DNA of 64,000 nt, taken from the NCBI GenBank assembly GCA_946639585.1, contig CAMPBS010000003.1, forward strand, positions 25,595 through 89,594, given 5' to 3'. Each line of letters starts with the position of its first letter. Within the stretch, counting starts at the first letter, position 1. Under the pieces are notes generated by a model. That model searched no databases. It worked only from the letters and a program-made list of their open reading frames with translations, and was not told the DNA's origin. This document shows, in pieces, positions 17,994 to 59,288 of this stretch. Both the position numbers and the translations under genes were made by a program. This DNA comes from an uncultured Clostridium sp. GTDB taxonomy: Bacteria > Bacillota > Clostridia > TANB77 > CAG-508.

Positions 17994-18130
17994 GTTAAAA
18001 TATATTAATTTTTAAACCCTTGGTGTCGCAACTTCCAGTTTTTAAATAACTAGTCTGTAAGTTGCTCCAGTCGCCCTGCGCTTCGCTTCGGTTGGTCGCT
18101 TACGCGGGTTTTAAATTAATATATTTTAAC
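17994..18130 (+). repeat. GC-core element copy 1 (conserved ~95-nt GC-rich core inside a copy-specific perfect A/T stem)
   Basis: Arms GTTAAAATATATTAATTT (17994-18011) and AAATTAATATATTTTAAC (18113-18130). Core CCCTTGGTGTCGCAACTTCCAG..CTGTAAGTTGCTCCAGTCGCCCTGCGCTTCGCTTCGGTTGGTCGCTTACGCGGG. Confidence 0.75.
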
Positions 18131-24366: not shown

Positions 24367-24408
24367 TTTTAAATTGTTGGTCTTTTTTATTTGTAGTAAG
24401 GTTTCTTA

Positions 24409-24551
24409 AAGTTTAAATATATTATTTTTCAAACCCTTGGTGTCGCAACTTCCAGATTTTAAAATACTGGTCTGTAAGTTGCTCCAGTCGCCCTGCGCTA
24501 CGCTACGGTTGGTCGCTTACGCGGGTGTTAAAAAATAATATATTTAAACTT
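24409..24551 (+). repeat. GC-core element copy 2
   Basis: Arms AAGTTTAAATATATTATTTTT (24409-24429) and AAAAATAATATATTTAAACTT (24531-24551). The core is near-identical to copy 1. Confidence 0.75.
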
Positions 24552-24683
24552 TATAATTTATTACAAAAACGAACAAAAATTTCAAAAAACTATTGACAAA
24601 TTTAAAATCATGATATAAAATAACATCAAGAAGAGCGAACAAGACTTCGCAAAACAAATAATCGAACAATGGAGGGTAATATT

Positions 24684-30204: not shown

Positions 30205-31392
30205 ATGAAAATTTTAGTTCTAAATTCTGGTAGTTCTTCACTAAAATACCAGGTAATTGACATGGAAAATGAGAAAACAATTGCTAAAGGTTATTTTGAA
30301 AGAATTGGGCAACCAAATTCATTTTTATCACACAAAGTAAATGGAATGAAGCATAAATTTGAAAGGGAAGCAAAAGACCATGAAGAAGCAATAGCATTTG
30401 TATTAGACAGATTAACAAATGACCACTATGGTGTAATTAAAGATTTAAGTGAACTAAATGGAATTGGACACAGAATAGTTCATGGTGGAGAAAAGTTTGC
30501 AGATAGTGTTTTAATAACAGATGAAGTAATTGAAGAAATTAAAAAATGTAGTGATTTAGCACCACTACATAATCCGGCAGCAATACTTGGAATTGAAGCT
30601 TGCAGAAAAGTTGTACCAAACATGAAAATGGTGGCAGTATTTGATACAGCATTCCATCAAACTATTCCAAAATCAAGATATATATACCCAATACCATATA
30701 AATACTATGAAAACTATGCTGTAAGAAAATATGGATTCCATGGTACTTCACATCAATATGTAGCATACAGAGTAGCTGAAATGCTAAATAAAGACGTGAA
30801 AGATTTAAAAGTTGTTAGTTGCCATTTAGGACAAGGTGCAAGTATTTGTGCTGTTCAAAGTGGAAAATCTGTTGAAACAAGTATGGGATTAACTCCACTT
30901 GGCGGAATACCAATGGGAACAAGAAGCGGAGATTTGGATCCATCAGTTTTAACATATTTAATGAAAAAAGAAGGTTTAACAGCAGATGAAATTGAAACAA
31001 TATTAAATAAAAAATCTGGGGTATATGGTGTTTCACGAGTTTCTATGGATTTTAGAGATATTGAATTTGAAGCACTAGTTGGCGGAACACATGCAAAACT
31101 TTCATTAGATATATTCTGTTATTTAATAGCAGGTTATATAATGAAATGTGCAGTAGCAATGGGAGGAATAGATGTACTTACATTTACAGCAGGTGTAGGC
31201 GAAAAAAGCCCATATTGCAGAGAAAATATTTGCAAGAACTTAGAATTTATGGGAGCAAAACTTGACTTAACCAAAAATGAAGTTAAAGGTGAAGAAGCAA
31301 TTATTTCAAAAGATGATTCTTCAATCAAGATTTGTGTAGTTCCTACAAATGAAGAACTAATGATTGCAAGAGAAACATTAAAGCTTATTTAA
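30205..31392 (+). CDS. ackA: acetate kinase
   Basis: Motifs MKILVLNSGSSSLKYQ, GHRIVHGG, APLHNPA, FHGTSHQYV and PTNEE. Confidence 0.9.
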   Translation: MKILVLNSGSSSLKYQVIDMENEKTIAKGYFERIGQPNSFLSHKVNGMKHKFEREAKDHEEAIAFVLDRLTNDHYGVIKDLSELNGIGHRIVHGGEKFADSVLITDEVIEEIKKCSDLAPLHNPAAILGIEACRKVVPNMKMVAVFDTAFHQTIPKSRYIYPIPYKYYENYAVRKYGFHGTSHQYVAYRVAEMLNKDVKDLKVVSCHLGQGASICAVQSGKSVETSMGLTPLGGIPMGTRSGDLDPSVLTYLMKKEGLTADEIETILNKKSGVYGVSRVSMDFRDIEFEALVGGTHAKLSLDIFCYLIAGYIMKCAVAMGGIDVLTFTAGVGEKSPYCRENICKNLEFMGAKLDLTKNEVKGEEAIISKDDSSIKICVVPTNEELMIARETLKLI

Positions 31393-31472
31393 GTTAATCT
31401 TATAAAGTAATTATATTATTTTTGAAATATAATTACTTCAAATATAAACAAAAAAGAAAGGATTTTAAAATT

Positions 31473-32672
31473 ATGAAGATTTTAGTACTAAACTGTGGTA
31501 GTTCATCACTTAAATACCAATTAATTAACATGGAAACAGAAGAAGTTATGGCTTCTGGAAAATATGAAAGAATAGGAGAAGAAGAAGCATATATTACACA
31601 CAAAGTAAATGGTCAAAAAATAGAAATAAAACACACAGCTTATGACCATGAAGAAGCAATAGACTTTACTTTAAAACAACTAGTAAATCCAGCATATAAA
31701 GTTGTAGATTCACTAGATGAAGTAAATGCAATTGGACACAGAGTTGTTCATGGTGGAGAATATTTCTCAACACCAGTACTTATTACAGAAGAAGTAATAA
31801 ACAAAGTTGAATTAGCAGCAGAGCTTGCGCCATTACACAATAAAGCAGCTGCACAAGGAATGAGAGCATGTCAAGCTGTTATGCCTGGTAAACCAATGGT
31901 TGTTGTATTTGATACAGCTTTCCATCAATCAATTCCAAAAGAAAGATATATTTATCCAATTCCTTATGAATATTACAAAAAATATGGAATTAGAAAATAT
32001 GGATTCCATGGAACATCACATCAATATGTTGCTAATAGATTAGCAGAAATAGAAAATAAATCAATAGAAGATTTAAAAATAGTAACATGTCATTTAGGAC
32101 AAGGGTCAAGTATATGTGCTGTTAAAGGTGGAAAATCAGTTGACACAAGCATGGGATTAACACCACTTGCAGGAATCCCAATGGTTACAAGAAGCGGAGA
32201 TTTAGATCCATCTGTTGTAACTTATATTATGAAAAAAGAAAATATGACAGCTGACCAAGTTGAAGATATGTTAAACAAAGAATCTGGAGTAATGGGAATT
32301 TCAGGATTAGCACCAGATTTCAGAGTTATAGAATCAGCTTCTTATGAAGACAATGAAAGAGCATCATTAGCTATGGAAGCATTTAAATATGCAATAGCTG
32401 GATTTATAGCTAAATATGCAGTTGCAATGAATGGAATTGATGCAGTAGTATTCACTGGTGGAGTTGGAGAAAACCAAATAAACATCAGAAAAGGAATATG
32501 TAAACAACTTGAGTTTATGGGATTAATAGTTGATGAAGAGGCTAACAACGTAAGAAGTGAAGAAAGATTAATAACAAAACCAGAATCTAAAATAAGAGCA
32601 TATATAATTCCAACAAATGAAGAACTTATGATAGCTAAAGAAACAGAAAAATTAGTAAAATATATCAAATAA
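31473..32672 (+). CDS. acetate/propionate-family kinase, second tandem paralogue
   Basis: Motifs MKILVLNCGSSSLKYQ, GHRVVHGG, APLHNKA (differs from the NPA of the first copy), FHGTSHQYV and PTNEE. Confidence 0.85.
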   Translation: MKILVLNCGSSSLKYQLINMETEEVMASGKYERIGEEEAYITHKVNGQKIEIKHTAYDHEEAIDFTLKQLVNPAYKVVDSLDEVNAIGHRVVHGGEYFSTPVLITEEVINKVELAAELAPLHNKAAAQGMRACQAVMPGKPMVVVFDTAFHQSIPKERYIYPIPYEYYKKYGIRKYGFHGTSHQYVANRLAEIENKSIEDLKIVTCHLGQGSSICAVKGGKSVDTSMGLTPLAGIPMVTRSGDLDPSVVTYIMKKENMTADQVEDMLNKESGVMGISGLAPDFRVIESASYEDNERASLAMEAFKYAIAGFIAKYAVAMNGIDAVVFTGGVGENQINIRKGICKQLEFMGLIVDEEANNVRSEERLITKPESKIRAYIIPTNEELMIAKETEKLVKYIK

Positions 32673-41850: not shown

Positions 41851-41877
41851 AAACGGCAAATTAAAAGCCGTTTTTTT
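41851..41877 (+). terminator. intrinsic terminator after rpmF
   Basis: AACGGC-AAATTAAAA-GCCGTT followed by T7. Confidence 0.6.
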
Positions 41878-41932
41878 CTTATTATACTATCAGGTCAGTT
41901 CTGTGCATTTTACTTTAAAATATGATATAAAA
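41878..41932 (+). promoter_or_regulatory. fab-box promoter/operator cassette, copy A
   Basis: CTTATTATACTATCAGGTCAGTTCTGTGCATTTTACTTTAAAATATGATATAAAA, sharing the conserved block TA(C/T)..CA.GGTCAGTT..T.CATTTT...TTAAAA.TATGATATAAA with copies B and C. Extended -10 is TGATATAAA. Confidence 0.55.
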
Positions 41933-41985
41933 GATATGTTGAAATAAAAAGGGGATAAAGAATTTAATAAGAAAGAGAGAAACGT

Positions 41986-45993: not shown

Positions 45994-46017
45994 AACAAAA
46001 TTAGATTAAAAAACAGG

Positions 46018-46047
46018 TAAAAAATCTCAATTTATATTGGGATTTTT
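46018..46047 (+). terminator. hairpin terminator forming the 5' part of fab cassette B
   Basis: AAAAATCTCAAT-TTAT-ATTGGGATTTTT. A near-identical hairpin occurs at 53273-53302. Confidence 0.55.
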
Positions 46048-46100
46048 CTTATACCATCAGGTCAGTTATGTACATTTTCCATTAAAAATATGATATAAAT
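46048..46100 (+). promoter_or_regulatory. fab-box promoter/operator cassette, copy B
   Basis: CTTATACCATCAGGTCAGTTATGTACATTTTCCATTAAAAATATGATATAAAT, upstream of fabF. Confidence 0.55.
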
Positions 46101-46140: not shown

Positions 46141-47370
46141 ATGAAACGAGTTGTAATAACAGGAATGGGAGCAATAACTCCTATTGGTAAAAATATAGAA
46201 GAAATGTGGGAAAGTATTAAAAATAAAACATGTGGTGTAAATGAAATTACTTTGTTTGATACTACAAATTTCAAAACAAAGGTAGATGCAGAAGTTAAAA
46301 ATTATGATCCATTAGAATACTTTGATCCAAAACAAGCAAAACGTTTTGACAAGTCATCTCAATTTGCAATTATAGCTGCAAGAGAAGCAGTTAAAGATGC
46401 AGGAATAACAAAAGAAAATACAGGCTATGATAGAGTAGGGATATTTGTAAGTTCTGGTATTGGGGGATTAAAAACAATTGAAGACCAATGTAGAGTCGAT
46501 TTTGAAAAAGGAAATAAAAGAGTATCTCCACTATTTATACCAAACTCAATAGTAAATATGCCAGCTGGAAATGTTGCAATAGAATTTGGATTTAAAGGTG
46601 AATCAATTAGTGTTGTAACAGCATGTGCATCATCTACACATAGTATTGGAGAAGCTTATAAAACAATTAAATTAGGCGAAGAAGATGTAATAATAGCTGG
46701 AGGAACTGAAGCATCAATTTGTGAAATTGGTGTTGCTGGTTTTGAAAATATGAAAGCACTATCTGGAAGTACAGATGTAAATAGAGCAAGTATCCCATTT
46801 GACAAAGAAAGAGATGGATTTGTTATGGGAGAAGGCGCTGGAATGCTTGTTTTAGAAGAACTTGAACATGCAAAAGCAAGAGGTGCAAAAATCTATGCAG
46901 AAGTAATTGGTTTTGGTTCTACAACAGATGCTTATCATATTACATCACCTTGTCCAGATGGAGAATGTGGTGCAAAAGCAATGATAAGAGCAATTAAAAA
47001 CGCTGGAATTGAACCAAGTGATGTTGATTACATTAATGCACATGGTACATCTACACATTTAAATGACTCAACAGAAACAATGGCAATTAAAACCGCTTTT
47101 GGTGAACATAGTAAAAAAGTGATGGTAAGTTCAACAAAAGGAAATACAGGCCATTTACTTGGCGCAGCAGGCGCAGTAGAAGCTGCTATTTGTGTTAAAG
47201 CGGTTGAAGCAGGAATTGTTCCACCAACATTAAATTATCAAGTTAAAGATGAAGAATGTGATTTGGATGTTGTTCCAAATGAACCTAGAAAAGTAGATTT
47301 GAATGTTGTAATGTCTAATTCACTTGGATTTGGCGGACACAATGCAAGTATTGTAATTAAAAAGTTCTAA
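46141..47370 (+). CDS. fabF: 3-oxoacyl-ACP synthase II
   Basis: MKRVVITGMG.., active-site ..VTACASS.., ..NAHGTST.. and ..GFGGHN... Confidence 0.9.
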   Translation: MKRVVITGMGAITPIGKNIEEMWESIKNKTCGVNEITLFDTTNFKTKVDAEVKNYDPLEYFDPKQAKRFDKSSQFAIIAAREAVKDAGITKENTGYDRVGIFVSSGIGGLKTIEDQCRVDFEKGNKRVSPLFIPNSIVNMPAGNVAIEFGFKGESISVVTACASSTHSIGEAYKTIKLGEEDVIIAGGTEASICEIGVAGFENMKALSGSTDVNRASIPFDKERDGFVMGEGAGMLVLEELEHAKARGAKIYAEVIGFGSTTDAYHITSPCPDGECGAKAMIRAIKNAGIEPSDVDYINAHGTSTHLNDSTETMAIKTAFGEHSKKVMVSSTKGNTGHLLGAAGAVEAAICVKAVEAGIVPPTLNYQVKDEECDLDVVPNEPRKVDLNVVMSNSLGFGGHNASIVIKKF

Positions 47371-47409
47371 AGATATGATATATTTTTAATTAAGAAAGGA
47401 AAGAGAAAA

Positions 47410-47891: not shown

Positions 47892-48026
47892 CATAATATA
47901 ATGATTTTAAAATCCGCGTAAGCGACCAACCGTAGCGAAGCGCAGGGCGACTGGAGCAACTTACAGACTAGTAATATTATAATCTGGAAGTTGCGACACC
48001 AAGGATTTAAAAATCATTATATTATG
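47892..48026 (-). repeat. GC-core element copy 3, inverted orientation, between accB and fabZ
   Basis: Arms CATAATATAATGATTTT (47892-47908) and AAAATCATTATATTATG (48010-48026). The core is the reverse complement of copies 1 and 2. Confidence 0.75.
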
Positions 48027-48469: not shown

Positions 48470-48536
48470 TTTTAAAAATTAATATATTGTACTAATAGCA
48501 ATAAAAAATAAAGAGAAAATGGAAAGGACAAACGAA

Positions 48537-51303: not shown

Positions 51304-51356
51304 AAAGGTGTCCTTAAAATGGACACTTTTGCTTTTAGGAAGTTTCCCAAAAAACA
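51304..51356. repeat. GGACAC/GTGTCC hairpin plus degenerate family motif (terminator-like)
   Basis: AAAGGTGTCC-TTAAAAT-GGACACTTTT, then TTTTAGGAAGTTTCCCAAAAAAC. Confidence 0.4.
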
Positions 51357-51368
51357 TATATTTTTATC

Positions 51369-51438: not shown

Positions 51439-52941
51439 GTGAATAACAAATATGATAAAGTATATATAGCAATTGATTTAAAAAGCTTTTATGCCTCTGT
51501 TGAGTGCAAAGAGAGAGGCTTAAATCCGCTTACAACAAATCTAGTTGTAGCAGATAATAGTAGAACAGAAAAAACGATTTGTTTAGCTGTAACGCCGTCT
51601 TTAAAAGCGTATGGAATACCAGGTAGGGCAAGACTTTTTGAAGTTATACAAAAGGTTGAAGAAGTAAATAAGCAAAGAAGATTAAATGCACCGGGGCATA
51701 GATTTACTTGTGCTTCTTATGATGATATTGCTTTAAAGAAAAATAAGGATTTAGAATTGTCATATATAATAGCACCACCTAGAATGAAATATTATATGGA
51801 ATATAGTGCAAAAATTTATAACATTTATTTAAAATGGTTTTCACAAGAAGATATATTTTCATATTCAATAGATGAAGTATTTATAGATATAACACATTAT
51901 TTACAAACATATAAAATGACTCCAAGGCAACTTGTTACTGCTGTTATAAAAAACGTATATGAAGAAACTGGAATAACAGCAACGGCAGGTATTGGAACAA
52001 ATATGTATTTATGTAAAATTGCCATGGACATAGTAGCAAAACATGTAGATGCTGACGAAAATGGAGTAAGAATTGCAGGATTAGATGAAAAAACATACAG
52101 AAAGTATTTATGGAGTCATAGACCTTTAACAGATTTCTGGCGTGTAGGTAAAGGAATATCTAAAAAGCTTGAACAAAATGGAATGTTTACAATGGGCGAT
52201 GTTGCAAGGATGTCTGAAAAAAATGAGGAGTTGTTATATAAACTATTTGGAATAAATGCAGAGTTACTAATAGACCATGCTTGGGGGTATGAACCTTGTA
52301 CAATTCAGAGTGTAAAAGCATATAAGCCAATATCAAATAGTTTAAGTTTAGGGCAAGTTTTACATCGTCCATATAATTATGAAGAAACTAGATTGATAGT
52401 AAAAGAAATGACAGAATTGCTTACATTAGATTTAGTTAAAAAAGAACTTATTACAAGTAAATTAGTTTTAACTATTGGCTATGATGTAGATAATTTAAAA
52501 GATGAAGAAATCAGTAAAAGATATTATGGAGAGATTACATTAGATAGGTATGGAAGAGAAGTACCAAAACATGCACATGGAACGATAAATATAGACCATA
52601 AAACTTCTTCAACTAAAATAATTACAAAAGCTGTAATGGAACTTTATGAAAGGATAATGAATAAAAATTTATTAGCTCGTAGAATAAATATTACTGCTGA
52701 AGAGGTTATTAGCGAAAATGAATATAAGAGTATGAAGAATTATGAGCAAATGGATTTGTTTGTTGATTATAATAAGATTGATAAGCAAAGAAAAAAGGAA
52801 AAGTCTGAAAAGGAATTACAAAAAGCAGTTTTGAATATAAAAGAAAGATATGGTAAAAATGCAGTGCTTAAGGGGATGAACTATATGGAAGCGGGTACTA
52901 CTATTGATAGAAATGGACAGATTGGAGGTCATCACGGCTAA
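51439..52941 (+). CDS. Y-family DNA polymerase (UvrX/ImpB/UmuC-like)
   Basis: ..YIAIDLKSFYASVEC.. and ..SIDEVFIDIT... GTG start after GGAGG. Confidence 0.8.
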   Translation: MNNKYDKVYIAIDLKSFYASVECKERGLNPLTTNLVVADNSRTEKTICLAVTPSLKAYGIPGRARLFEVIQKVEEVNKQRRLNAPGHRFTCASYDDIALKKNKDLELSYIIAPPRMKYYMEYSAKIYNIYLKWFSQEDIFSYSIDEVFIDITHYLQTYKMTPRQLVTAVIKNVYEETGITATAGIGTNMYLCKIAMDIVAKHVDADENGVRIAGLDEKTYRKYLWSHRPLTDFWRVGKGISKKLEQNGMFTMGDVARMSEKNEELLYKLFGINAELLIDHAWGYEPCTIQSVKAYKPISNSLSLGQVLHRPYNYEETRLIVKEMTELLTLDLVKKELITSKLVLTIGYDVDNLKDEEISKRYYGEITLDRYGREVPKHAHGTINIDHKTSSTKIITKAVMELYERIMNKNLLARRINITAEEVISENEYKSMKNYEQMDLFVDYNKIDKQRKKEKSEKELQKAVLNIKERYGKNAVLKGMNYMEAGTTIDRNGQIGGHHG

Positions 52942-53050
52942 AAAATAATTGGCGAATTTCGTTGTTGAACTGCACTCGATAATCCTCAACGTGCCCATGC
53001 ACGCCTCCGGTTATCTCGTTTGTTCGCCTAGAAATTCACTCAATTATTTT
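52941..53050. repeat. single-copy hairpin-bracketed GC-rich insert between the polymerase and the yolD-like gene
   Basis: Arms AAAAATAATTGGCGAATTTC (52941-52960) and GAAATTCACTCAATTATTTTT (53031-53051) are imperfectly complementary. They flank a ~70-nt G+C-rich core unrelated in sequence to the three-copy family. Confidence 0.4.
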
Positions 53051-53082
53051 TCAGCCTGTTAGAAAAATTCAAGGAGGTAGTA

Positions 53083-53274
53083 ATGAATTTTAAAATTGAT
53101 AAAAGTTATGATGATATTATAAATTTGCCACATCATGTGTCTAAAAAGCACCCTCAAATGTCTTTGTATGCTCGTTCTGCACAATTTGCACCATTTGCTG
53201 CATTAACTGGCTTTGAAGATGTAATAAAAGAAACAGCAGAAAAGCATGAGGAAGAAGAAGAAAATAAAAACTAA
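53083..53274 (+). CDS. YolD-like protein
   Basis: 63 aa with ..RSAQFAPFAALTGF.. Lies immediately downstream of a Y-family polymerase, as in the uvrX-yolD arrangement. Confidence 0.55.
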   Translation: MNFKIDKSYDDIINLPHHVSKKHPQMSLYARSAQFAPFAALTGFEDVIKETAEKHEEEEENKN

Positions 53275-53302
53275 AAATCTCAATTTACATTGGGATTTTT
53301 TT
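53273..53302 (+). terminator. hairpin terminator forming the 5' part of fab cassette C
   Basis: AAAAATCTCAAT-TTAC-ATTGGGATTTTTTT. Confidence 0.55.
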
Positions 53303-53356
53303 CTTATACCGCAAGGTCAGTTTAATGCATTTTTATTTAAAAATATGATATAAATT
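53303..53356 (+). promoter_or_regulatory. fab-box promoter/operator cassette, copy C
   Basis: CTTATACCGCAAGGTCAGTTTAATGCATTTTTATTTAAAAATATGATATAAATT, upstream of accD. Confidence 0.55.
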
Positions 53357-58019: not shown

Positions 58020-58259
58020 ATGAATAATGAAGAAATTTTTGAAAAATTAAAAGAAATAATAGTAAACCAATTAGGAGTAGAAGAAGAACAAGTCAAAATG
58101 AAATCAACATTTGTAGACGATTTATCAGCTGATTCTCTAGATATAGTTGAACTAGTAATGAGCATTGAAGAAGAATTCGATATGGAAATTCCAGACGAAG
58201 CAGCAGAAAAAATTGTTACAGTTGAAGATGTTGTTAAATATATAGAAGAACATAAATAA
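58020..58259 (+). CDS. acpP: acyl carrier protein
   Basis: Phosphopantetheine site ..[14 protein letters not shown]... Confidence 0.9.
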
Positions 58260-58265
58260 GTAATA

Positions 58266-58293
58266 AAAAAGCTCAATTTTTATTGAGTTTTTT
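58266..58293 (+). terminator. intrinsic terminator after acpP
   Basis: AAAAAGCTCAAT-TTTT-ATTGAGTTTTTTT. Same hairpin type as in fab cassettes B and C. Confidence 0.6.
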
Positions 58294-59251: not shown

Positions 59252-59260
59252 TAAAATATT

Positions 59261-59288
59261 CTTTTGGGGAGTGTCCCAAAAAGTTTGA
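59261..59288. repeat. GGGAGTGTCCC-family hairpin copy
   Basis: CTTTTGGGGAGTGTCCCAAAAAGTTTG. Has a TTTTGGG/CCCAAAA stem and matches the right arm of the 2449-2545 element. Confidence 0.5.

Follow-up and report, generated by a model that had tools for sequence, protein, structure and literature searches.

A 64,000-nt stretch of DNA from an uncultured Clostridium sp. (contig CAMPBS010000003.1; hereafter, the window) carries three copies of a short intergenic element, in which a near-identical G+C-rich core is enclosed by long A/T-rich inverted repeats (arms). We consider that these copies belong to a family that is probably a non-coding, non-autonomous interspersed DNA repeat, similar in behaviour to MITEs (miniature inverted-repeat transposable elements) or REPINs, with arms that are kept matched at the DNA level (estimated probability, roughly 55%). 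From the distribution of the copies, we infer that they behave as mobile DNA. Copies have certainly been gained and lost between lineages.

Three copies in the window

The copies lie where the initial annotation had placed them, with the extent of copy 2 now set at 24407–24553, and a 16-mer of the core had exactly 3 exact matches in the window (0.00 expected from 100 shuffles). Copy 1 (+ strand) comprises a 5′ arm, GTTAAAATATATTAATTTTTAAACCC (17994–18019), complementary to its 3′ arm, GGGTTTTAAATTAATATATTTTAAC (18106–18130), and the enclosed G+C-rich core, TTGGTGTCGC...GCTTACGC (18020–18105), within which the inner hairpin, P2, occupies 18028–18065. The 5′ arm, core and 3′ arm of copy 2 (+ strand) are found at 24407–24436 (TAAAGTTTAAATATATTATTTTTCAAACCC), 24437–24522 and 24523–24553 (GGGTGTTAAAAAATAATATATTTAAACTTTA), respectively. 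Those of copy 3, which lies on the − strand, are found at 48003–48026 (CATAATATAATGATTTTTAAATCC), 47916–48002 and 47892–47915 (GGATTTTAAAATCATTATATTATG), and its inverted-repeat pair is 24 nt long and 96% complementary. The three cores scored 173.7, 174.2 and 175.2 bits, respectively, with a covariance model, and a search of the window with this model for diverged or partial copies returned nothing beyond them.

The only differences among the cores, which are 86–87 nt long, fall in the inner-hairpin loop and at two W positions, in agreement with the near-identity first noted by eye. The perfect inverted repeats of 17–21 bp that had been described were measured as 18, 21 and 17 bp (copies 1, 2 and 3, respectively), and the arms reach 24–30 bp, abutting the core, once one mismatch or bulge is allowed. 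Two earlier descriptions of the arms had to be revised. They are not composed of A/T only, as each contains one or two G·C pairs and CC/GG beside the core; nor are they completely different in each copy, as the 5′ arms aligned in register from the core (26 nt) match at 23/26 positions (88%) between copies 1 and 2 and at 18/26 (69%) between copies 1 and 3. Every 5′-arm difference among the three copies is mirrored in the matching 3′ arm. The fold energies of all three copies, on both strands, were far below those of shuffled sequences (z = −6.2 to −8.3), which is expected for any palindrome. Read from the sequence, the core contains no ATG and no plausible reading frame, and each copy has three spaced GTCGC motifs.

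All three copies are intergenic. Copy 1 (between ruvB and eno) and copy 2 (between a YezG-like and a YgjP-like gene) are co-oriented with their flanking genes, and copy 3 occupies the accB|fabZ spacer (site B), antisense to accB and fabZ within the acc/fab operon. An exact-protein look-up for the gene downstream of copy 2 gave no record. Within the species, both copy 1 and copy 2 are fixed, and same-species contigs carry copy 2 with 0–3 single-nucleotide polymorphisms. Among seven short Logan/ENA contigs of the copy-2 locus (L122–L128), five stop inside the core, at ...CTTCCAG, 89 nt past the upstream gene, and the other two end before that point, L126 at 74 nt and L127 at 42 nt past it; the breaking of short-read contigs inside copy 2 is the behaviour expected of a repeat.

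Two coreless sequences accompany copy 3 in the same operon. A solo arm, TTTTAAAAATTAATATATTGTAC, is present in the fabZ|accC spacer (site C) at 48470–48492 (+ strand), the sole non-element match to the arm consensus in the window at ≤1 mismatch. A possible arm remnant, GATATGATATAT, in the coreless fabF|accB spacer (site A; 47372–47383, + strand) is assigned tentatively, as the sequence is of low complexity.

Distribution and subfamilies

Scanning one genome per species for an exact 19-mer seed retrieved 17 true copies from five AT-rich ‘Clostridia bacterium’ metagenome-assembled genomes (MAGs; 26–32% G+C) of goat, buffalo and cattle rumen. Seven of the 17 belong to the RGIG2630 assembly, where two more diverged copies were found in the same loci. 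A gapped-pattern scan of metagenomes added 30 further element-bearing loci, and a profile search over the fetched loci yielded 98 matches, about 55 of them non-redundant. Seven 19-mer matches in G+C-rich genomes and one locus from the metagenome scan (L025) were chance matches inside coding DNA and were discarded. As far as sampled, the family is confined to a clade of uncultured AT-rich rumen Clostridia.

All copies are intergenic, and about 11 are co-oriented with the flanking genes versus 8 antisense. The neighbours are housekeeping families only: we found no recurrent protein family and no recurrent recombinase beside the copies, no Y1 transposase among the neighbouring open reading frames (ORFs), and no half-elements or split or ORF-bearing versions in 540 kb of loci. 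The initial annotation had not recognised the core as any named RNA or repeat family, and the searches bear this out. Rfam matched only three tRNAs in the window above the gathering threshold and, under permissive settings, gave nothing credible for copy 1 at E≤10 or for loci of subfamily sf3 at E≤1. A BLAST search with the core matched none of 72,556 plasmids or 50,697 phages, an exact scan of viral contigs returned 0 hits, and a literature search by key words and literal core strings retrieved nothing relevant.

Across the family, a unit is one hairpin nested in another and consists of an outer inverted repeat of 18–38 bp, a short conserved 5′ segment (YTTGKTGTCG), the inner palindrome P2 of variable length, and a conserved, apparently unstructured 3′ segment of 30–45 nt rich in GTCGC, GCTTC and ACGC motifs. 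The core is asymmetric and 86–113 nt long. At least five subfamilies (sf1–sf5) were distinguished, plus a further long-P2 form. Subfamily sf1, which includes the three window copies, has a short P2; sf2 has an extended P2 with the conserved internal-loop sequences TCATTCCGT and ACTYCATTY; sf3 carries the 32-bp arm GTTACTAGTCAGCCTTATTAATATATCTTTTA; sf4 combines the P2 stem GCGACCT/AGGTCGC with a 3′ domain shorter by about 15–20 nt; and sf5 combines GTAACCT/AGGTTAC with arms of at least 30 bp. The length of P2 varies from 32 to 61 nt between its strands, and its stem occurs in at least five Watson-Crick variants (GCAACTT, GCAATTT, GCAACCT, GCGACCT and GTAACCT), each with the matching partner. 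Some sf2 copies (L007:2172-2404, L045:14024-14189, L012:4211-4440 and L028:993-1222) contain a 51-nt hairpin-forming insertion, TTGCTGYCCATTGTTAAGGCTCTGCCTGTTACAATGGCAGTATGCAGTAGC, at one point of the 3′ domain, which is either an optional stem or a smaller nested palindromic element.

Conservation and covariation

Conservation peaks in the middle of the element and declines outward. Among 30 sf1 copies, including copies from different species, identity was 94–96% in the core, 72–75% in the inner arm, 58–65% in the outer arm and 41–43% in the flank, the last being the background level. Subfamily-specific arms, namely, the 32-bp arm of sf3 and the ~30-bp arm of sf2a, recur at unrelated loci, indicating that most of the arm is carried by the element. 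Inner-arm asymmetries, such as GGGTATTG opposite CAAACCC, likewise travel with the core.

Covariation was assessed using RNAalifold on the 30 sf1 copies and by pair counting on a 56-copy covariance-model alignment. Only two helices were supported, the outer stem formed by the arms (P1) and the inner hairpin P2, and the inner stem GCAACTT/AAGTTGC proposed from the window alone is real and covaries across the wider family. Within the structure, 94.5% of the cells were paired (75.7% in shuffles), both sides had changed in 384 cells, and the covariation score was 0.433 compared with 0.126 in shuffles, none of 500 of which reached it. When the partners were slid against each other, pairing collapsed to 36–47%. 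The changes were almost all from one Watson-Crick pair to another, including many A-T to T-A swaps, with transversion-type double changes dominating; one-sided (wobble) changes were almost absent overall and near zero in the arms.

This pattern bears on the level at which the pairing is kept. A selected RNA helix is expected to gain G·U pairs on the transcribed strand and to purge A·C. Of the arm pairs counted in 53 non-redundant copies, 1518 were Watson-Crick, 17 were G·T and 19 A·C, and 82 were mismatches of other kinds; neither arm strand shows a G·U enrichment, and wobble is not commoner than hard mismatches. As neither strand is favoured and no wobble excess exists, the arms look like a DNA palindrome. 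The remaining helices predicted in the core are invariant or G·U-dependent, which leaves ~55 nt of core conserved without covariation-supported structure.

Several features suggested by inspection or prediction were dropped. The 3′-domain helices and a GGUG/CGCC helix proposed by RNAalifold were invariant or G·U-dependent. The ‘UNCG-type loop’ noted earlier is present as the sequence C(UNCG)G; only its closing pair can form, with no stem past it and no supported enclosing helix, and some copies read CUCUGG instead. A TAATATTAC-like loop seen by eye in copy 3 is not conserved across subfamilies, and the resemblance of ACTTCC...TGTAA to a Firmicute dif site, also noticed by eye, has the wrong spacing. 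Promoter and terminator scans found none conserved with the copies, only weak consensus matches as expected in A/T-rich DNA, and a recurring outward TTGCGA-N16-18 match was not used as evidence.

Filled, unfilled and re-used sites

Syntenic DNA of relatives was fetched via FabZ and RuvB homologues. The more distant P0014 group (FabZ 89% identical) shows the compact arrangement fabF-22 nt-accB-2 nt-fabZ-23 nt-accC, and the close relatives L066–L071 have 9 nt at site A. L101 and L104 (RuvB 97% identical) have an element-free ruvB–eno spacer of 131 nt, compared with 252 nt in the window, in which the eno promoter is kept and a small 8-bp A/T hairpin adjoins the insertion point. No long palindrome was found in these compact or unfilled orthologous spacers. 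The arms and core are thus insertions that did not need a long pre-existing palindrome, and the idea that the A/T palindrome might exist at empty sites without the core found no support.

The arms showed a consistent asymmetry when filled and unfilled alleles were compared at three spacers (ruvB|eno, fabF|accB and fabZ|accC). The downstream arm continues the sequence of the unfilled allele by ~7 nt, by ~12 nt and over the whole arm, respectively, and the upstream arm has no counterpart there. For instance, the outermost GTTAAAA of copy 1 mirrors TTTTAAC, and in the unfilled L101/L104 alleles the counterpart of the latter is TTTTAAG. From these sequence comparisons, the flank may be the source of the outermost arm. 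They admit two readings: the unfilled alleles are deletion remnants that keep one arm, or the palindrome was extended by inverted copying of one flank. The initial annotation had offered a DNA element that targets or generates long A/T palindromes as one of two readings, and this reading is the nearer to the evidence: targeting gains no support from the unfilled spacers, and generation is supported in part by these three comparisons.

The same spacers are repeatedly re-used among relatives. At site A, a full element is present in L051, L056, L058 and L065, with a right arm containing ATGATTATAT, and L072 has the exact reverse complement, ATATATCATATC. Depending on the allele, site B has the core in the − or in the + orientation, a different P2 haplotype, a 245-nt element of an unrelated kind, or no more than 2 nt. 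Between the window and L066, the arms at site B are identical, and the cores are otherwise identical except for at least 9 clustered changes confined to P2, which amount to a switch between two family-wide haplotypes; such a confined cluster is a signature of gene conversion. The opposite-orientation allele at this site shares the outermost arm bases, and the middle of both arms has changed in mirror fashion. The outermost arm bases at site B are common to the window and L051, whose cores differ.

The alleles at site C include the solo arm of the window, a full sf1 element (L038), sf4, an sf4-like variant and sf5, and family members also occur there in L066–L075, L072 and L079. Homology links the solo arm to the right arm of L038's full element, and the outermost arm bases, TACAATAT/ATATTGTA, recur in sf1 and sf4 as well as in the solo arm; at this site, L038, L067 and the window have them in common. 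Comparable replacements were observed elsewhere. L050 (sf1, +) and L001 (long-P2 subfamily, −) occupy the same orthologous site with identical inner arms and four mirrored outer-arm changes, and a site with flanks that are 95–96% identical is occupied by different sub-subfamilies in L004 and L007. In the orthologous pair L022 and L033 (flanks 88% identical), only 4 of 54 arm positions differ, including one mirrored pair, so the arms are not hypermutable. At copies 1 and 2, the strain represented by a 434-kb contig shows ~99% identity with the window, but it diverges by ~5% around sites A and B.

Other palindromic sequences occur in these spacers. The unrelated 245-nt element of the accB|fabZ spacer (L038:396-640; also in L067, L069–L071, L073 and L074, with a 152-nt deleted form in L072) has A/T arms, GTGAAATATATA...TATATATTTCAC, contains a long palindrome internally and is G+C-rich at one end (TCGGCTACCCGACGACGACG...CTGGTCGCATTC); its presence in the spacer of copy 3 indicates that several palindromic-element families compete for the same spacers in this clade. 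The accB|fabZ and fabZ|accC spacers of L079 and L080 (1291-1500 and 1924-2174) are bounded by TTTAGAGRC...GCCTCTAAA inverted repeats, with an sf5 member nested inside one of the spacers so bounded. A 91-nt insert with a GGAACGTTTGGGGACGGTTCC hairpin is present at fabF|accB in L080.

Comparison with known systems

The family departs from classical MITEs in their defining features and reverses the conservation pattern of REPINs and attC sites. The best flanking direct repeat in 54 non-redundant copies averaged 3.44 nt, compared with 3.51 nt in a mismatched-flank control, and no target-site duplication of consistent length was found; isolated repeats occur at L010 (11 nt) and L048 (8 nt). The lack of a target-site duplication and the unconserved arm ends make an ordinary DDE-transposase MITE unlikely. 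Against this assignment, no duplication of fixed length flanks the copies, the outer arms are 58–65% identical against 94–96% for the core, the arm ends differ by subfamily, and neither an ORF-bearing relative in the 540 kb of loci nor a plasmid or phage match was found. The Correia elements of Neisseria, RUP and BOX of pneumococcus, ERIC of enterobacteria and bcr1 of Bacillus cereus are MITEs with RNA-like folds. Our family resembles them in size (100–230 bp), in its ~25 bp terminal inverted repeats, in its intergenic position in either orientation, and in its strain differences, subfamilies, nested insertions and stable predicted hairpins. Those MITEs have conserved terminal repeats, a cognate insertion sequence (IS) family and a target duplication (TA for Correia and RUP, TTTAT for bcr1), whereas here no duplication is detectable, the ends vary, conservation peaks mid-element, and no similarity to Rfam, plasmids or phages was found.

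REPINs consist of two inverted copies of a conserved 20–30 nt REP around a short spacer, are mobilised in trans by an unlinked enzyme, and are thought to move via folded single-stranded DNA. The REPIN/REP picture reportedly involves RAYT (IS200/IS605-like HUH Y1) transposases. Like REPINs, the present elements are short, gene-less intergenic repeats in tens of copies, the whole unit forms a long hairpin without target-site duplication, arm mutations tend to be matched in the other arm, and a putative unlinked mobiliser would act in trans. Unlike REPINs, whose arms are conserved, they have variable arms and a conserved asymmetric core of 86–113 nt, show no REP-type GTAG motif and no flanked RAYT gene at the loci examined, and reside in AT-rich Clostridia instead of Proteobacteria. 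PATEs derived from IS200/IS605 have distinct sub-terminal hairpins at both ends and insert 3′ of a fixed tetra- or pentanucleotide. This class was rejected, as most copies have only one conserved internal hairpin (P2) and their left flanks end in unrelated sequences with no shared insertion motif.

Integron attC sites have conserved outer R″/R′ boxes (RYYYAAC/GTTRRRY) and a variable centre, and follow cassette genes in arrays near intI. They share with our family an imperfect palindrome whose structure is kept while its sequence is free and whose central region varies in length, but the conservation pattern is reversed here and the neighbours are housekeeping genes (ruvB, eno, accB and fabZ). 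An attC assignment was rejected given the variable arm ends, of which only that of copy 1 happens to begin GTTAAAA, and the gene pairs beside the copies (ruvB/eno, YezG-like/YgjP-like and accB/fabZ). The mobile GC clusters and double-hairpin elements of fungal mitochondria are 30–60 bp long and themselves palindromic, in AT-rich organelle genomes. They are likewise short, foldable, G+C-rich elements in A+T-rich spacers that differ among strains and encode no protein, but they are organellar and much shorter, whereas the present family has an asymmetric core inside A/T arms. Invertons are invertible promoters between inverted repeats (C. difficile flgB and cwpV; Bacteroides capsule loci). The likeness lies in a ~90–200 bp segment between 20–25 bp inverted repeats and in the presence of both core orientations at one spacer among relatives; the difference, in inverted repeats that are not sequence-conserved; no adjacent recombinase and no convincing internal promoter was found. 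The (+) and (−) alleles at site B differ in arms, core and flanks, and such orientations with different arm and core variants and diverged flanks are old alleles, not a switch; an inverton was therefore rejected.

Proposed mechanism and alternative explanations

Under the interpretation as a non-autonomous DNA repeat, the copied part would be the conserved core together with the inner 12–20 nt of the arm. A putative unlinked enzyme acting in trans would recognise this part on a folded single strand or a cruciform, and its action on such a structure would explain why the stems need pairing and not a particular sequence. Quasi-palindrome template switching is an established behaviour in bacteria, and intra-strand templating of this kind during replication (snap-back synthesis) could keep the arms perfect without selection, as a change in one arm would be reverted or copied onto the other. 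The same templating might lengthen the palindrome into the flank, giving the outermost base pairs that are specific to each copy. This proposal is consistent with the Watson-Crick-only pattern, with transversions being mirrored, and with outer pairs that differ from copy to copy. The cores would be kept alike by gene conversion among copies, as seen at site B, and by a presumed constraint on the core. A bolder version, which we regard as rather unlikely, is that the family represents an undescribed type of prokaryotic mobile DNA without target-site duplication, in which a ~90-nt asymmetric core cassette with short inner repeats moves and perfects its own long arms from the adjoining DNA by snap-back synthesis; such a cassette could be swapped, inverted or excised to leave a solo arm, and would be served by a putative structure-specific enzyme encoded elsewhere.

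Several points weigh against the interpretation as a mobile repeat. No transposase, recombinase or autonomous partner was found at the loci examined, and no insertion within a single lineage was caught in the loci compared. Where the 434-kb-contig strain differs from the window at sites A and B, the variation was probably brought in by homologous recombination instead of being created in place through transposition or inversion. At site A and at the copy-1 site, the homologies are short, low-complexity sequences, and the solo arm is either a deletion remnant or a target. The 94–96% core identity across species could reflect a host function at the DNA or RNA level, G·U pairs are rare anyway in A/T-rich stems, which weakens the wobble test, and the snap-back account of the arms is drawn by analogy from quasi-palindrome mutagenesis.

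A structured non-coding RNA, either a multi-copy small RNA or a cis-acting mRNA element, in which P1 and P2 are kept for pairing only, was the other of the two initial readings, and we now consider it improbable. On this view the core would be the functional RNA, and its helices would resemble the stems of riboswitches or ribozymes. What stands of it is that the closing helix and the inner hairpin covary strongly: a near-invariant junction or core with variable, covarying helices is RNA-shaped conservation, as are the P2 length range of 32–61 nt with its at least five compensated stem variants and the optional 51-nt hairpin at one 3′-domain point, and the fold energies (z = −6 to −8) and the conservation of the core across species point the same way. 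The covariation itself, however, has the pattern of a DNA palindrome, with no G·U excess (17 vs 19) and mostly transversion-type double changes, and the ~55 nt of core outside P2 have no supported helix. An RNA would also have to be reconciled with copies that run with or against transcription (one of them antisense within the acc/fab operon), a single spacer holding the core in both orientations among relatives, presence or absence in housekeeping spacers, the lack of a conserved promoter or intrinsic terminator, and the lack of an Rfam match even at E≤10.

The conservation of the core without RNA-like structure, together with its three spaced GTCGC motifs, could also be expected if the core is bound or processed by a chromosomal protein acting in nucleoid organisation, topoisomerase function, replication or recombination, and the copies are selected locus by locus. 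REP/BIME elements have been proposed to serve chromosomal proteins as such a binding or processing site; extrusion of a cruciform is favoured by palindromic arms, a function indifferent to orientation agrees with copies being about equally split between the strands, copies 1 and 2 have become fixed in the species, and some spacers (site C) have long been occupied. We nonetheless judge such host recruitment unlikely, as close relatives manage without the element at the corresponding sites, both decayed remnants and solo arms are found, and subfamilies with much shorter or altered 3′ domains replace one another at one site; no candidate protein emerged, and this explanation is in any case compatible with a mobile origin. 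It is very improbable, and largely refuted, that the arms are wholly target DNA, with a short core having entered the loop of A/T palindromes, terminators among them, that were there beforehand. IS1397 inserts into REP loops in this way, the outermost arm bases are locus-specific and common to different cores at sites B and C, and the unfilled ruvB–eno spacer has its 8-bp hairpin beside the insertion point. Against this, the compact or unfilled spacers lack a long palindrome, the window contains no empty arm-like A/T palindrome (its other long inverted repeats, such as terminator-like hairpins and a second element family, are different in kind), the 30–32 bp subfamily arms recur at unrelated loci, and the inner-arm asymmetries travel with the core.

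Other repeats in the window

A second stem-plus-core family, unrelated to the main element, is represented at 52936–53056 (+ strand), directly upstream of a ribosome-binding site and ATG, with the arms GGCTAAAAAATAATTG/CAATTATTTTTCAGCC and the core GCGAATTTCG...GAAATTCAC. L024 (6062-6178) and L047 (7993-8082) contain homologues, and L066 and L068 each begin with a partial copy. Compensated changes occur in internal helices between homologues (for example, GTGCCCATGCAC to GTACCTTAAGTAC), P1 is imperfect, and no Rfam match was obtained at E≤10; going by its sequence, this family appears to be a candidate cis-regulatory leader RNA. A direct repeat of 58 nt, TTTTTCTTATACCATCAGGTCAGTT...TATGATATAAAT, occurs at 41876–41933, 46043–46100 and 53298–53355, upstream of three transcription units, one of which starts with fabF at 46141, and may be a shared operator and promoter for lipid-synthesis genes.

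Two terminator-like palindrome families, TTTTGGGACACTCCCTAAAA/... and AAAATCTCAATTTAnATTGGGATTTTT, recur after genes (2467–2534, 51323–51358 and 59252–59287; also 46003–46047, 53256–53300 and 58249–58293), and illustrate the ordinary terminators of this genome; their short G/C-containing stems contrast with the long A/T arms of the main element. Tandem paralogues of 395 and 416 amino acids are encoded at 30205–31392 and 31422–32672, with ~73–81% nucleotide identity over repeated stretches at a spacing of 1268.

Implications

Small palindromic repeats shape the intergenic regions of bacteria, and their origin and movement are understood for few families. The family described here reverses the usual pattern, with a centre that is near-invariant and ends that are variable yet strictly complementary, and it re-uses the same spacers. 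On the practical side, such repeats fragment short-read assemblies of these MAGs and mark strain differences, and for RNA discovery they provide a caution that very strong covariation scores can arise without any RNA. If the arms are kept and extended by self-templated synthesis, the family would naturally document quasi-palindrome template switching on an evolutionary timescale; and if an enzyme acting on the folded core exists, its structure-specific handling of DNA would be a new activity, contributed by an uncultured rumen lineage.

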